Shown here: in pieces, positions 7,914 to 16,336 of the stretch
How the letters are laid out: each line of letters starts with the position of its first letter
Numbering within the stretch: the stretch's first letter is position 1
Assembly (NCBI GenBank): GCA_037445735.1
Contig: JBBIJY010000018.1
Location: forward strand, 1 to 58,887
Origin: Armatimonadota bacterium
GTDB taxonomy: Bacteria > Armatimonadota > Fimbriimonadia > Fimbriimonadales > GBS-DC
DNA length: 58,887 bases
Direction: 5' to 3'
Translations under genes and position numbers: made by a program
Notes under the pieces: model-generated
Told to the model about the DNA's origin: nothing
What the model saw: the letters and a program-made list of their open reading frames with translations, nothing else
Databases searched by the model: none

Positions 7914-8855
7914 ATGGACCGCCTGATTGTGATTCTGGGTCCGACGGCGGTGGGGAAGACAGCAGTGGGACTGCGAGTGGCGGAGCAGATAGGAGCCGAG
8001 ATTATCTCCGCCGATTCAGCAGCCGTCTATCGCGGGATGGACATCGGCACAGCGAAGCCCACGCCCGAAGAGCGCGCCCGCGTGCGATTCCACCTGATCG
8101 ATGTGGCAGACCCGAGCGAGCCGTTCACCGCCGCGAAGTTCCGCGAGCGGGCGCTCGACGCCATTCGCGAGATTCAGGCGCGAGGCAGGCGCGTGCTGAT
8201 TGTAGGGGGCACGGGACTCTATTTGCGCGTGCTGCTGCACGGCTTCAGCCTCGCGCCGCCGCCCGGCGACCCCGCCGTGCGCCAGAGGCTCCAGCAGGAA
8301 GCGCGACAGCACGGCTTGCCCGCCCTCTATGCACGATTGCAACAGATCGACCCCGAAGCCGCCGCTCGAATCCATCCTAACGACGCCGTGCGCATCGTGC
8401 GCGCGCTGGAGGTGTACGCGACCACAGGCAAGCCCATCAGCCAGTGGCAACGGCGCGCCGAATCGGAGCTGCCCGCGCTCAAGTTCGGACTGACCATGCC
8501 CCGAAACCTGCTCTACCAGCGCATCGACGCGCGCGTCGACCAGATGATGGCGCAGGGATTTCTCAACGAGGTGCAGAATCTGCTCTCGAAAGGGTACAAT
8601 AAAGACCTGCCCGCCCTCAAAGGGTTGGGCTACCGGCATCTGATCGCCCATCTGATGGGCGAATGCACGCTGGACGAAGCGGTCGCACGCTGGAAACGCG
8701 ACACGCGACGCTTCGCAAAGCGTCAGATGACCTGGTTCCGTCGGGAGCCAGTCATCCGCTGGCTCGATGCCAGCGCGGGCGTGGAAGCGACCGCGCAACA
8801 AATTGTGCAGATGATTGCGCAACAGGGAGGGCAAGATTATGGCAAAAGCGATTAA
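7914..8855 (+). CDS. miaA: tRNA dimethylallyltransferase
   Basis: [41 protein letters not shown]. Confidence 0.97.
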
Positions 8856-10832: not shown

Positions 10833-10851
10833 GCGCATTTAGACCAGCCCC

Positions 10852-10881
10852 TTGAAAAACGCGCATCCGATGTGCTATACT
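10852..10881 (+). promoter_or_regulatory. Sigma70-type promoter of the island
   Basis: TTGAAA (10852)-18 nt-TATACT (10876) with TGn extension; SD GGGAGG 10912-10917 before ATG 10924. Confidence 0.65.
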
Positions 10882-10991
10882 ATAGACCAGCGTAGCAGAA
10901 TACAAAGAAGTGGGAGGCAGACCATGCGACGGCTGACGATGGATGGTCACAGTGGCTTTGTAAGAATCCTCACAACCCGCTTCAATCCAGC

Positions 10992-11003
10992 GGGGGGGGG
11001 GGG
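10992..11003 (+). repeat. G12 homopolymer (candidate slipped-strand switch)
   Basis: 12 consecutive G between ATG 10924 and ATG 11007. Confidence 0.9.
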
Positions 11004-11006
11004 TGG

Positions 11007-13994
11007 ATGCTGCGCCAAGGTCGATCTCGAGCTAAGTTGGTGATCTACCCGGTGGCTGCGTTGCTTCTATTGATGAGGGTAGTTGCTCAGGTGCCTGACG
11101 AAAGATTCGCTCGAATTGTGCCGGAGATCCTATCGGCTGCGGCTCAAAATGGCTCCCTTGTAAAATTTGAGAACGATAGTGTGCAGGGTATTGCGGGCGT
11201 TAACAGGGTGGTTGTGCCTGCTGATGGGCGCAGTTTAGCCTGGGGCGTAATTCGACTCACTGATAAACAGGGACAGCCCATTTCCGATGAAGTGGTCGAA
11301 ACATCGGTCAGTGAAGGCAGATTGCATATCATTGGTAGAAATCCGCTAACGGATCCTGCAGGCAATCTTGTCTTTGCTGTTCAGGCAGTTGAGGGGCGTA
11401 CTGTATCGGCAACGGTACGATTTTACTTTCCACGACTGCAAGCAGGTGGTCAAATAGACCTGCTCTTTTACACAGATTACTTTGCGCCTGCTGATGGGTG
11501 CGATGGTATACAAAGCGCATCGGTTTTCTATAGACCTGTGATTTCTGAAGGGCAACTCGAAGTATGTTTTCCATCTCAGTTCGCCGATATGTTTGGTATG
11601 GAAGTGGATTCATCGCCCTATGTGCCTGCCTTTGATTTTGAAGCAACTTTTCGCGCCACCAATCGTCCTACTGAGGCTTTCAGTGAAGTTAGTTTCTCGC
11701 TGTATAATGCTTCTTGCTGCTCTCCTCCTGGGCAATGCAGAAGATCGGTGTGTTATTGCGACGATGGTATACACGGTTATCCTGCAAGCAGTAATCTACT
11801 CTCATCGTACTTGCTTCCAAATGATGATGTTGTTGCCGAAGTGGAGTATCTGGTATATTCGCCTGGAGGGGGCACTGTTTGTTCGCAAGAGTTTACCTAC
11901 ACAGTTCGTAATCCAATATTAATTATAGAAGATCTAGAAGAGCTTTATCTTTTCGATCATCCTTATGAATCTGATTTTCGTCAACCCGCAAGGATATACA
12001 TCTCGATTGAATCGCCTCTTGTCAGGGCAGAAAGAGGATGGTGGTGGTATAATTCCGCATTCTATTTGCAAGTCATGGTACGAAATCAGCCAGAAATTAT
12101 TCCTGTTACTGTCCCCACAACACAGCCTATAGAAGTAGTGATACCTTCTATCTCTTCTGGTACGGTTAATCCAATAGAGATAAAATTGTTTAGAAATATT
12201 TCGTTAAATAACCAAATCGAAGTTGATGGAACACATGGTTATTTGAATTTGAGAGTGGACAGAATCTATGCTCTGGGTAGAGATTCCGTTACCCGCACTT
12301 TTGATTTTGAGATTACTTACACCTTAAGTCTATCGCGCCAGCTATCCACTTCGCGGGGAGCATCATCGGGTGTAGTTATTGTGCGTGATCCCGCCAACGA
12401 GGTGATATACCGCTACACGGTACCACCTCAAAAGCTTACATTAGGTTCGCATACGGTGGTGGTCAAGATTCCAGAGGATCAGATGCTTCGTTTTGGGCGA
12501 TATGTTTTTGTGCCGCACTTTATAGATGATTTGGCAGATTACTACCGCAATCGGCAACCGAAGTTGGCACGCGTAAGCGGCACACTGCATTTTGATACGC
12601 CTAACAGTCCATATGATATATTCGGCTCGGATTACCTTCGTCGTCTGCACCCTTATTACACAATATATAATATTTCAAATGATTTAAGAAATAATTTAGC
12701 CCGTCAAAGTTTCCCCACCGAAGGCGAAACATGTTTCCTTATTGCAGCAATGTCTCGCTATCTCTATGAGCCTATACCCCAGGAGCTCAACGGCGCATTG
12801 TTTGTGGGGGAAGACTACTGGCGGGATAATGGAGGTGCGCGGCGTCCCAATCCACCTTCGAATAGCCACATCGATGAATTCTTTGGTGCATTACGATACC
12901 GGGGCAGAATACCCTTCTTCACCAATAATCGCCAAGCAGAAGCACTGGGTACTGACTGGCGTTTATGGCCGGGGCCGAAACTGGAATTCCGATGGCTCAA
13001 GCTTTCACATGTCGCCAGTAATGAAGAGAGGCGGCTATATTACTGGAAATATCAGGACACTTCATGCCTCAGCCCAAGTTATGTATGGCGTTCCAGAGTG
13101 GGAACTCACTACTTTGCAGTTGCTGTAACTTCACCGTCACTGGATCACTATGTTGTTTCGGGGCCATATGTTGAGCGCAACCAGAATCGAATCATCTCCA
13201 AGCAACGGTTTGAACGGCTGCTTCGCAGTGGTCAACTGATAAGTCGGTACGCTTCGGATGGTTTTACCGCTCCGCTACGGATATCCAGCAAGCGTTCGTA
13301 TGCCGATGTGGCAACGCAGGAATACAAGCGGAGGGTGATTGAATGGGCAAGCACCTTTGTAAATGTACGCTATGAGTGGGGTGGTTGCTGGTTTGGTGGG
13401 CGTGCCCACCCCAGCCAGCGCGATAGTGGTGGCTTTGCCGGCTATGAAGGCTTTGGCATCGACTGCTCCAAACTGGTCAGCGCAGCAGCGATGATGGCGG
13501 GTCTACGCTGGGATCGGCGGAATAATATTCGCTGGTGGGATATCGGCGGTGTTCACTTTGCTGATAGGTATCCTTATACATCGGGCTGGAACGTTGCTCG
13601 CGCGTGGGCTTTCTGTTCCCACTCTTAAGATAGGTATCCTTATACATCGGGCTGGAACAGCAACGAGGAGGCGCGCCTGAACGCAGAGCCCGGCGATATC
13701 TTGGTCAAGTATGGTGCCCATGTCGCCATCATCGCACAGTTTGCACAAGTTAGGAATAAGATCAATCTGAGAACGGGTCAAGTCACGGACCGATACATCT
13801 GGGCGACAATTATTGACTCTTCTGGTAGCTATAACGGGGTGACCATCAACACTGGTTCCCATCTTACTCGCTCCCATACACGGATTTCCAGAGGTAATGA
13901 GAGGCGTTCTGATACTGTAGGAATTCTGATGGAACATTTAGATGATAGGGGAAAAACTTACACTCTGCGTCAGCTACGGCAGATTCAAAACTAA
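11007..13994 (+). pseudogene. Large secreted Ig-like + NlpC/P60 peptidase protein interrupted by a 66-bp insertion
   Basis: Signal-like N-terminus; invasin-type Ig pattern (VPADG..IRLTDKQGQPI..TDPAG); YEWGG...GIDCSKLV (Cys 13464); EPGDILVKYGAHVAII (His 13719) in the same frame after TAA 13626-13628. Confidence 0.85.
13563..13658 (+). repeat. Perfect 30-bp direct repeat flanking a 36-bp insert (repeat-spacer-repeat architecture)
   Basis: GATAGGTATCCTTATACATCGGGCTGGAAC at 13563-13592 and 13629-13658; insert GTTGCTCGCGCGTGGGCTTTCTGTTCCCACTCTTAA at 13593-13628. Confidence 0.95.
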
Positions 13995-14008
13995 GTGAGG
14001 TGAGAGCA

Positions 14009-15366
14009 ATGCGATGGACACAGCACACACGAGAAACATTCGGACAAACCGTCCCGGTGATGCTGTTGATATTGATCGGCATGCTGGCAATTGCTGCCGC
14101 CAGCTTCGGACGAAAAGCCACTGTCCAAACGGATTCCCAGCCCGTTTCCCTGTTCAAGATCACTTATGGCGAAGAGCCAACGAAACTTCGCCTGCGTTTC
14201 CCCGGCTCCCTGCGGCTCGGCGAGGAAGAGGAGGAGCCATTGTTCGGCGGTGGACCAACCACCTTTTGTGTCAGCTGGGATGGGCAGCTGTTTTATATCG
14301 CCGATCCCCTGCGCGTCTATGGCAAAGACCTGAAACCACCGCAGCCGTCTGATGATGAAGTAGAGGAAGAGAGGAATGAGGAGCTAGTCCCCTGGGTGCA
14401 GGTTTACAATCGTCAGGGGCAGTGGGTACGCACGATTAAAATCAAGTACGGTTTCCCATCCCGGATACGCGTGGACGAGCGAGGCTGGCTCTATGTGGAT
14501 GACGCTGGGCGTGGTGTGGCAGTCTACCGTCCTGACGGCGCTTATGACCAGCAGCGAACGGAGGCGATTGCGGCAGAAATCCGACGAGCAGAAACGGAGC
14601 ATCGCTTAGACCCAGAGCTTAAACCCGAGTTTTTCGAGGTTGACCGTCAGGGCAGGGTCTACTTTCTGGCTAATCAAATCGTCTCAGAAGAAGGTGAACC
14701 AAGTATCTCCAGTTGCGTTTGCTGATCGTTCACCCTGACGGTGGTTACAATCTCCTTGATTACAGTGACTACAATCAGTGTGGGATTGATCGCTATCGCG
14801 GTGACGTTATTATGGGCAACTATGACGAACCCGCTGAAGGTCAGATGGAGATTGAGTTTGTAATCTCACCCTTCGGCGAGGGGAATCGTGAGAGGCGAAA
14901 AACCATAACTCTGTTTAAGGTTGAGCCCTACAAGCGTGTTCGTCCGAACGGCGAGGTGGTGCAGAAGTTTGACTGGCAGCTGGACATTTCTGATCAGGTG
15001 CCGAATGTGTGGGATGGTTTCGTCGGTACTGAGAACCTTGCAAATCAGATGGCGATTGCCACTGACGAGGCGGGACGCCTTTATCGGGTATATACGGCGG
15101 CGCGGCGCCGCTGGGTGAGGTTAGATGACCCCGACGATCCTAATCGTGGCATGGCTTTACAGGAAGGTTTCTGGATTATTGAATTCACTTCTGATGGGCG
15201 ATACATTCGCTCGCGCGCCTCCAACCTCCGCTTGATTGGCAGCTACGGACACCAGTCGAACCTTGTCGGATCAACCACCAACCTCTGGGATGTGGACAAG
15301 CATGGTAATGTGTACTGGATGGAGTTTCATCCGCGCTATGTGGAGATCAAGATGGCGCCGCGTTAG
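14009..15366 (+). pseudogene. Secreted beta-propeller/NHL-like protein, frameshifted
   Basis: Hydrophobic signal MLLILIGMLAIAAASFG; repeated VDERGWLYV/VDRQGRVYF/TDEAGRLYR/VDKHGNVYW blade motifs across two ORFs; adding one base near 14700 joins them (EGEPKYLQLRLLIVHPDGG). Confidence 0.75.
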
Positions 15367-15464
15367 TCGTTGGGCAGGTTAGCCGTTTCTGGTTCCTGCC
15401 AATAGCGGGTATCAACGGGTATAAATGGAGCGTACTTTTCACTGGTGGAACCTGTGGAACCTGC

Positions 15465-16336
15465 ATGCGGGCGCGATGGGCACAACTCGGATGGCTACTG
15501 TTGGCTCTGTTAGCCGCTGGGCTGTTTGGGCTGCTGCCGCAAGGGTTGCCTTCGGTGCGCTGGCTGCTGATGGCGCCCTTCCGCAAACTGCAGCTCAACT
15601 CCCCGCGTGAACGGCGTTTGTAGCCTACCTCTGAGGGATTGAAACGCGATTGACAAACGATCTATTGCGCATTCGGCGAGAGGCGCAGGCGTTTCGTGCT
15701 TACGAGGCGCACGCCCGCGCGGTATTTCCCGATCCTGCCCGGATGGGCGCCTTATCGGAACAGTTCCTTAAGCGCACCTTCGCGCCGCTCTATCGGCTGC
15801 GCGCGGCAATCGCGATAGGGTTCTGTATCCTGTGGACCCTGCTGGCGATGGGGCTTGCCCTGATGATAGCGCGTCGCGTGCGCCCCGACGGATTCTGGCT
15901 CTTTGGAGCCGCACTGCTAACAGGATGGCTGGCAGCGTTTCTGTTCAGTTTCACCAGCCTGTCAGCCATCGGCACCGCTTCCCTCGCGGAAATCCGAACT
16001 GGCTTCTTTGGCGACCCTTATATTACCGCAGGGCAGGCTGAACAGGAGCGGTTTCAGAGCGCGCTGCTCAGGGCGCGAACCGATATCGCCAGCATCGGCT
16101 TCTGGTCGGGCTTGGGGCTGTTGCTGCTGATGCTGGGCATCACATATGCCCGCGCTCGAAGCCGCAAACCGCTGCTGGGTTATGAGCGGTTTCTGAAGGC
16201 GCTACCATGGGTGCTGAGCCTGATAATTCTGGTGCTGATCTATCTGTTTGCCCTCTACGCATCAGCAGAGCATGAAGCCAGCCAGCGAGTGGAGCAGCGG
16301 CTTCGTAACGAGCGGCTCCTCATGGGTGGGGTATAA
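15465..16336 (+). pseudogene. Membrane protein gene broken at a CRISPR repeat
   Basis: N-terminal piece MRARWAQLGWLLLALLAAGLFGLL... (15465-15623) stops inside the repeat; 228-aa multi-TM piece 15650-16336 lacks a good start/SD. Confidence 0.55.
15616..15645 (+). CRISPR. Solitary CRISPR repeat unit (30 bp, ATTGAAAC-ending, type I-B/III-like); no array
   Basis: GTTTGTAGCCTACCTCTGAGGGATTGAAAC: GTTT start, internal CCT/AGG palindrome, ATTGAAAC end; no second copy in the window. Confidence 0.85.

Follow-up and report, generated by a model that had tools for sequence, protein, structure and literature searches.

A canonical CRISPR repeat that stands alone inside a broken membrane-protein gene of an Armatimonadota bacterium is, in our reading, a non-functional scar of CRISPR autoimmunity, formed when the gene recombined with an array unit of the form X-repeat-Y; we put the probability of this reading at roughly 0.55. 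The DNA analysed (hereafter the window) is contig C18 of genome G000 (59 contigs, 2.78 Mb), taken at its full length of 58,887 nt. In it the repeat is flanked by two stretches of spacer length, arm X on the left and arm Y on the right. The features to which the text refers are the following, where + denotes the forward strand:

10834-15428: AT-rich island, with 42-56% GC compared to 60-72% in its flanks
13563-13658, +: repeat-length duplication around an insert, in which 13563-13592 equals 13629-13658 (30 nt, exact) and the insert is 13593-13628 (36 nt, unique)
15465-15623, +: remnant ORF of 52 aa with a signal/TM-like N-terminus, whose stop is a TAG inside the repeat
15577-15579, +: PAM-like CCT immediately before arm X, shared with the sister genome G002
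15580-15615, +: arm X, the last 36 nt of the 5' part of the gene, spacer-sized and in array orientation
15616-15645, +: canonical CRISPR repeat of the host type I-B, with 0 mismatches, whose 3' end is ATTGAAAC
15646-15681, +: arm Y, the first 36 nt of the 3' part of the gene, with homology to the intact gene from its first base
15650-16336, +: remnant ORF of 228 aa that corresponds to the multi-TM C terminus of the gene product, in another frame and with a possible TTG start

An earlier note, made from the sequence of the window alone, had described a lone intact repeat with no leader, second repeat or cas gene around it, and this description proved accurate. The 30-nt repeat is exact and occurs once in the window when searched at up to 3 mismatches, with matches in 0 of 100 shuffled-sequence controls, and its 11-nt 3' end is also single-copy there (up to 1 mismatch). 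It was recognized by the Rfam model RF01315 (CRISPR-DR2) with 43.3 bits, above the gathering threshold of 37 (E value, 3.5e-5). The 100 nt that precede the repeat showed no significant match elsewhere in G000, array leaders included, and the only Cas1 match of the genome lies on a different contig, C2. Thus, if an array is taken to consist of at least 2 repeats with a spacer and a leader, 15616-15645 does not form part of one. The orientation of the repeat was set by the other arrays of the genome, in which leaders lie upstream and degenerate terminal repeats lie downstream; C41, for instance, ends as a normal array whose last repeat is degenerate.

A CRISPR system using this same repeat was also sought in the host, and it is present in the form of type I-B arrays and a cas operon. 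Throughout G000 the 30-mer was found at 17 sites (12 exact and 5 with 1 or 2 mismatches), and where the arrays are regular, their unit is a 30-nt repeat plus a 36-nt spacer, giving a period of 66 nt. Contig C2 carries a complete type I-B operon, with matches to cas6, cas7 (I-B Cst2/DevR), cas5, cas3, cas4, and cas1 (I-B) and with a 487-aa ORF without a family match at the position of cas8; no array adjoins this operon. Relatives of the same genus or family contain long arrays with the same repeat, and two of them, G001 and G003, retain a layout of operon, leader, and long array.

The nature of the interrupted gene was established by comparison with G002, a sister species of the same genus that is collinear with the window and shows 94-95% identity here. 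In G002 the gene is intact and encodes a 553-aa ORF that contains both flanks of the repeat, in agreement with the previous proposal that these are the N- and C-terminal parts of a single gene. For this reason a chimera of unrelated loci was ruled out, both flanks being neighbors in G002. The 553-aa membrane protein is an ORFan, without a Pfam family, and the homologue search returned just the protein of G002 itself (1 match). Homology between the window and G002 stops at 15612 and restarts exactly at 15646, and no repeat is present at that place in G002. Alignment with the intact homologue sized the deletion: ∼816-817 nt of gene middle in G002 correspond to exactly one repeat in the window. 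Given that a TAG lies within the repeat and that the right ORF is in another frame, removal of the repeat does not restore the gene, so that both the frame break and the loss of sequence had been correctly anticipated.

Since the repeat is 100% canonical and a cas6-containing operon is present in the genome, a function for the solitary repeat, also suggested in the earlier note, has to be weighed. Its RNA would be transcribed from the promoter of the gene and then bound and cut by Cas6, and it would act either as a decoy that sequesters Cas proteins, similar to the RNA anti-CRISPRs (Racrs), sparing the foreign island that lies 190 nt away, or as a 5'-AUUGAAAC-Y guide against intact alleles. 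Racrs, as presented in the account of PMC10651486, are solitary repeats of the host subtype located on viruses, prophages, and plasmids, in intergenic positions, usually just behind a promoter and often beside acr genes. Our repeat is similar to those of that account in being a single repeat of the host subtype that has neither cas genes nor another repeat in its vicinity, and it differs from them in that it lies in a broken chromosomal gene, between spacer-like arms flanked by PAMs. Indeed, its location is not viral, prophage, or plasmid borne: the gene remnant is chromosomal and syntenic with G002, with no mobile element. Neither does it resemble CreR or crlRNAs, whose repeats are degenerate, whose pseudo-spacer partially matches a promoter, and which usually lie within or next to the cas operon, given that the repeat is canonical, the cas genes are on a different contig, and Y is simply the gene continuing. 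A simple scan yielded 0 promoter-like sites in 15300-15760, and the RNA fold of the repeat region was no better than that of shuffled sequences (z, -0.26). A second solitary repeat, G000:C13:16042-16071, also found in G002:C8, has 2 mismatches in G000 and has decayed to 5 mismatches in the cas-less G002; judged by its letters, this decay would be as expected of a relic. The C13 repeat follows a leader-type promoter at a distance of 7 nt and lies shortly before a gene for a membrane protein. For its part, the exactness of the repeat in the window may be a consequence of youth. With a chromosomal remnant as its site, no promoter-like site in the scan, and no special fold, we consider a functional RNA very improbable.

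The arms, on the other hand, have what would be expected of a scar: both are of spacer length and in array orientation, and the PAM is at the expected place. In the arrays of the relatives (n = 309 spacers), the modal spacer length is 36 nt (145 spacers), with 62 spacers of 35 nt and 60 of 37 nt. Arm X can be read, from its sequence, as a putative former spacer that became one with its protospacer. Over the first 33 nt it aligns with G002 (33/33, 94% identity), whereas its last 3 nt, at 15613-15615, are GGC versus TGT in G002, and the stretch common to X and the gene may thus be limited to 33 nt; among the protein homologues there is no intact G000-type allele (only that of G002). The protospacer of Y in G002 is preceded by CCA, and in the window the 3' end of the repeat occupies that place.

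A CCN motif was found directly upstream in all of the repeat-to-gene junction spacers of G000 that were tested (7/7), namely X (CCT), Y (CCA), the two spacers of the anmK locus on C45 (CCT for the internal one and CCC for the junction one), C21 (CCG), pdxT on C9 (CCA), and C45b (CCT). These sites were read in G002 wherever intact sequence exists, and the CCT of X was read in the window itself. With a background frequency of CC of 0.079, the probability of 7/7 would be 2e-8 if the spacers are independent, a value to be read with the knowledge that the motif was first noticed on four of them (Y of C18, both spacers of the C45 anmK locus, and Y of C21) and then held on X, pdxT, and C45b. As reported in PMC5737086, the PAM of Pyrococcus furiosus is CCN, and its spacers, of 36-38 nt, are mostly host chromosomal, with hotspots around arrays. 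Exceptions to CCN were also found. The repeat-flank junction of G002 itself corresponds to GTG in the G000 orthologue, where the first 8 nt align poorly, and a G001 spacer matching G000:C3 over 35 nt with 3 mismatches is flanked by ATT. The junction at cas8b in G002 is ambiguous, giving CCT only with a 37-nt spacer. A search of the 309 spacers of the relatives against G000 gave 4 matches of at least 26 nt (3 different spacers), one of them near full length, which are too few for PAM determination.

Four other loci of G000 (C45 anmK, C21, C9 pdxT, and C45b) display a canonical repeat fused to the PAM-adjacent interior of a gene. At the anmK locus (G000:C45:4385-4480), a repeat-spacer-repeat is found in place of 528 nt that are present in G002, and its 36-nt spacer maps inside the missing 528 nt, on the same strand (first 20/20 nt at 95%, 28/36 overall). 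Of 9 internal or partial spacers of G000, this is the only one that maps to the DNA of the relatives that was compared, and it argues for ordinary spacer acquisition from such loci. In G002, anmK is intact, and a 12-nt remnant of the 3' end of the repeat lies upstream. At the C9 locus (G000:C9:98028-98142), the repeat stands in place of codons 1 and 2 of pdxT, to which it is fused at codon 3. A TTG of the repeat is in frame with pdxT and constitutes a possible new start. The same locus comprises a leader and then a pair of repeats whose intervening "spacer" is unusual, with a length of 25 nt and the 11 initial nt of the repeat within it; compared to G002, ∼550 nt of a Uma2-like gene are missing together with the start of pdxT.

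A junction of this type is also present in G002, at the expense of its own cas genes. This genome is devoid of the region from the 3' part of cas8b through cas2, and the interior of cas8b is joined directly to a repeat. At G002:C28 (∼8400-8700), cas6 and the truncated cas8b are followed by a two-repeat mini-array, and cas7 through cas2 were found nowhere in the G002 genome. Some 850 nt of trailer that are present in G000:C20 are missing from G002:C28 as well.

These loci lead us to a broader, tentative reading, to which we give somewhat less than an even chance: arrays of this lineage would recombine repeatedly with their own PAM-flanked targets, deleting the DNA in between and replacing the PAM with the repeat. 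The same tentative reading includes the planting of repeats or mini-arrays at new loci, at least five in G000, and the loss of cas genes in G002.

As for the window itself, the earlier note had considered a recombination with two adjacent self-derived spacers as homology arms. The 36-nt arms, their orientation, the CCN motif, the loss of the gene middle, and the occurrence of the same type of junction at four other loci agree with it. The expectation that both arms would also appear as neighboring spacers in host arrays was not borne out: X and Y occur once each in G000 and in 0/28 of the other family genomes (up to 3 mismatches), and a donor array X-repeat-Y was found neither in the G000 assembly nor in those 28 genomes.

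The missing donor array would be accounted for if the integrase had joined the ends directly. In such a case, following a break in the gene, Cas4-Cas1-Cas2 would trim long chromosomal ends at the PAM and at the ruler distance, and half-site integrations would join the 3' ends to the two borders of a repeat, thus rendering PAM-exact junctions without a prior X-repeat-Y array. The junctions are certainly exact at the repeat borders and at the PAM positions, off-target action of the integrase is apparent 2 kb away (see below), and spacer uptake has hotspots at DNA ends and around arrays in the system of PMC5737086. However, the anmK locus has a normal internal 36-nt spacer that comes from the deleted DNA, and recombination is the simpler explanation for it. 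Furthermore, the insertion of an entire repeat between two ends of the chromosome has no precedent known to us. We therefore regard joining by the integrase as improbable, and favor recombination with an X-repeat-Y unit, which explains the exact borders, the PAM positions, the shared orientation, the lost middle, and the frame break.

All the genomes used are metagenome assemblies, probably from one study. The junctions were also examined with independent contigs, namely Logan contigs (k = 31) from four runs of one study (runs X1 to X4), for which the threshold for a bridge was 31 letters. The right junction is covered by a contig of 4,527 nt from run X1 (depth, 19.3), which contains the right flank through 15617 with 0 differences. 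It carries 29/30 repeat letters, below the 31-letter bridge threshold, and is thus support for the right junction, not proof. No contig of run X1 enters Y from any other sequence. In a second contig of that run (6,105 nt), the repeat is continuous with pdxT, and run X3 contains both a contig with the cas8b-to-repeat junction of G002 and two spacers, between repeats, identical to those of the G002 mini-arrays. Runs X2 to X4 represent a G002-like strain in which the gene is intact, with 849 letters between 15612 and 15672.

The left junction is where an assembly path, an explanation also raised in the earlier note, has to be weighed. According to this explanation, the true array end would be ...repeat-X-repeat-Y-gene, and the 190 nt of the left part of the gene, from reads of a rarer strain, would have been attached to it through the 36-nt X. 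It needs X and Y to be true spacers, as they appear to be by PAM and length. The 52-aa ORF that spans the left junction is present on two NCBI metagenome contigs (58,887 nt and 63,332 nt) and has no match among the Logan proteins, which include the C-terminal piece only; of the two junctions, the right one has the backing of a Logan contig, and the left one is seen only in these two NCBI contigs. The array content of the G000-like strain in run X1 differs in addition from that of the MAG: its pdxT repeat is preceded by C, not by the A of the MAG, and several of its repeat neighbors are absent from the MAG. In the same run, the island contig ends at 15426 and the next contig starts at 15617, a hole that counts neither way. 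When metagenomes were scanned with the terminal 19 nt of the left flank, 3 loci were obtained, all of them unrelated.

Against an assembly path, the ends of G000 contigs overlap by 55 nt, which suggests an assembly at k = 55, a value at which two paths cannot be merged by a 30-nt repeat or a 36-nt spacer alone. Every 55-mer across the left part of the gene, X, and the repeat would then have to come from reads or from contigs inherited from an earlier round; assemblers of the SPAdes type, which work with several values of k, can pass contigs built at low k on to later rounds, and this counts in favor of such a path. The junction is, moreover, identical on the two NCBI contigs, and no MAG contig ends as ...repeat-X, the two open array ends finishing in other letters. 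Overall, we find an artificial path at the left junction unlikely. A collapsed longer array was ruled out, since at k = 55 the X-repeat-Y 55-mers must exist.

Other features of the assembly were also recorded. The two ends of C45 share an identical stretch of 154 nt from upstream of the leader, and the last 55 nt of C9 overlap the end of C45. The leader module is a multicopy repeat that breaks the assembly. Five G002 segments absent from G000 are uninformative, because none of them reaches the length of the smallest binned contig (2,104 nt).

The surroundings of the broken gene also bear signs of CRISPR activity, as the earlier note had supposed. The AT-rich island stops 37 nt short of the start codon of the gene, which leaves the repeat ∼190 nt outside it. 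It replaces ∼950 nt of G002, corresponding to most of a threonine-aldolase-like gene that is cut after approximately codon 34, and its genes match those of G022, which belongs to another genus, at 66-78% identity. The repeat-spacer-repeat structure that had been reported 2 kb from the solitary repeat is real and lies inside the island: at 13563-13658, the exact 30-nt duplication and the 36-nt insert have the sizes of the host repeat and of the modal spacer, respectively. The insertion puts a TAA into an 873-aa ORF, the homologue in G022 is single copy and has no insert, and a Logan contig covers the region with 0 differences. By its structure, this is the footprint of an off-target Cas1-Cas2 spacer integration. 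The "neo-CRISPR" arising from off-target spacer integration (Nivala et al. 2018, as cited in bioRxiv 10.1101/148544) has its likeness here, in the 30-nt target duplication with a 36-nt insert; 15616-15645 is unlike it, being the canonical repeat itself, with no duplication and with ∼816 nt lost.

Some additional observations were made on the island. Its first ∼60 nt resemble, by eye, the upstream promoter part of the C9 CRISPR leader; with MAFFT, the left end of the island did not align with CRISPR leaders. A run of 12 G is located at 10992-11003, just upstream of the ATG of the 873-aa ORF, and a Logan contig of run X1 ends inside it; this run may be a phase-variable tract or a sequencing drop-out. 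An NlpC/P60 domain guessed by eye at the end of the 873-aa ORF was not confirmed by Pfam.

Under the autoimmunity reading, the scar could have originated as follows. Type I-B adaptation (Cas1-Cas2-Cas4) would have taken the PAM-flanked 36-nt X and Y from the ORFan gene, probably after the foreign island next to it had been targeted. Both would come from the same strand, ∼0.8 kb apart and right beside the island, and would have been placed side by side in the array as X-repeat-Y. Cascade and Cas3 would then have attacked the chromosome. Type I Cas3 degrades DNA on the PAM side of its target, and damage upstream of the PAM of Y would fall on the middle of the gene. The gap would have been closed by homologous recombination with the sole matching template, X-repeat-Y, converting ∼816 nt into one repeat. 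The adjacency of X and Y in an array, the damage by Cas3 as the driver, and the repair by recombination rather than by the integrase are what we infer. As an outcome, the PAM of Y would be gone and the gene would be left in two out-of-frame pieces; with the 3' end of the repeat in place of its PAM, the Y site would read as "self." X retains its PAM (CCT) in the window, and therefore a guide carrying X could still direct targeting after this event.

The nearest known process is the recombination between spacer and target described for phages and arrays. In the work of Varble et al. 2019 (as cited in PMC8616872), spacer-protospacer recombination takes place between phages and CRISPR loci and results in the transduction of CRISPR loci. 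As in that system, an array spacer and its matching target would be the site of a crossover by homologous recombination. Unlike in the system so cited, both partners here would be host chromosomal, two adjacent spacers would serve as arms, and the outcome would be a gene deletion in which a repeat remains.

Escape from lethal self-targeting has been described to occur by target deletion, spacer loss, or cas loss (reviewed in PMC6990116; PMC7521656 for the type I-B system of Haloferax; PMC3630108 for Pectobacterium), the modes given in PMC6990116 and PMC7521656 being microhomology end joining, recombination between IS elements or paralogues, repeat-repeat recombination, and mutation. Self-derived spacers, chromosome damage, and survivors with target or cas deletions are shared with our case, and the cas loss of G002 fits directly. 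The differences with respect to the escapes as described in PMC6990116 and PMC7521656 are the canonical repeat at the deletion and the replacement of the PAM by the repeat. Similarly, the orphan type I-F arrays of Escherichia coli, with anti-cas spacers and cas loss (Almendros et al. 2016, as described in PMC8616872), are comparable to G002, which lacks cas7 through cas2 and has the interior of cas8b next to a repeat. In contrast to the E. coli case as described there, G002 keeps the junction itself, with the gene interior joined to the repeat border. Phrase searches of main texts on spacer-protospacer recombination returned no published description of such a chromosomal scar.

Self-targeting spacers are common, and survival of self-targeting is known mostly from laboratory selections, in which cells are known to escape through end joining that deletes the target or through loss of the spacer or of cas genes. 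If our reading of the window is true, the array itself can serve as a recombination partner or repair template, and the event leaves a signature, a repeat border at a former PAM site, that could be searched for in any genome. Such events could account for scattered mini-arrays and solitary chromosomal repeats without invoking function, and they call for caution in that chromosomal solitary repeats need not be RNA anti-CRISPRs. Should the tentative lineage-wide reading also be true, recombination of arrays with their own targets would constitute a general route of escape from autoimmunity, of array dispersal, and of gene loss.
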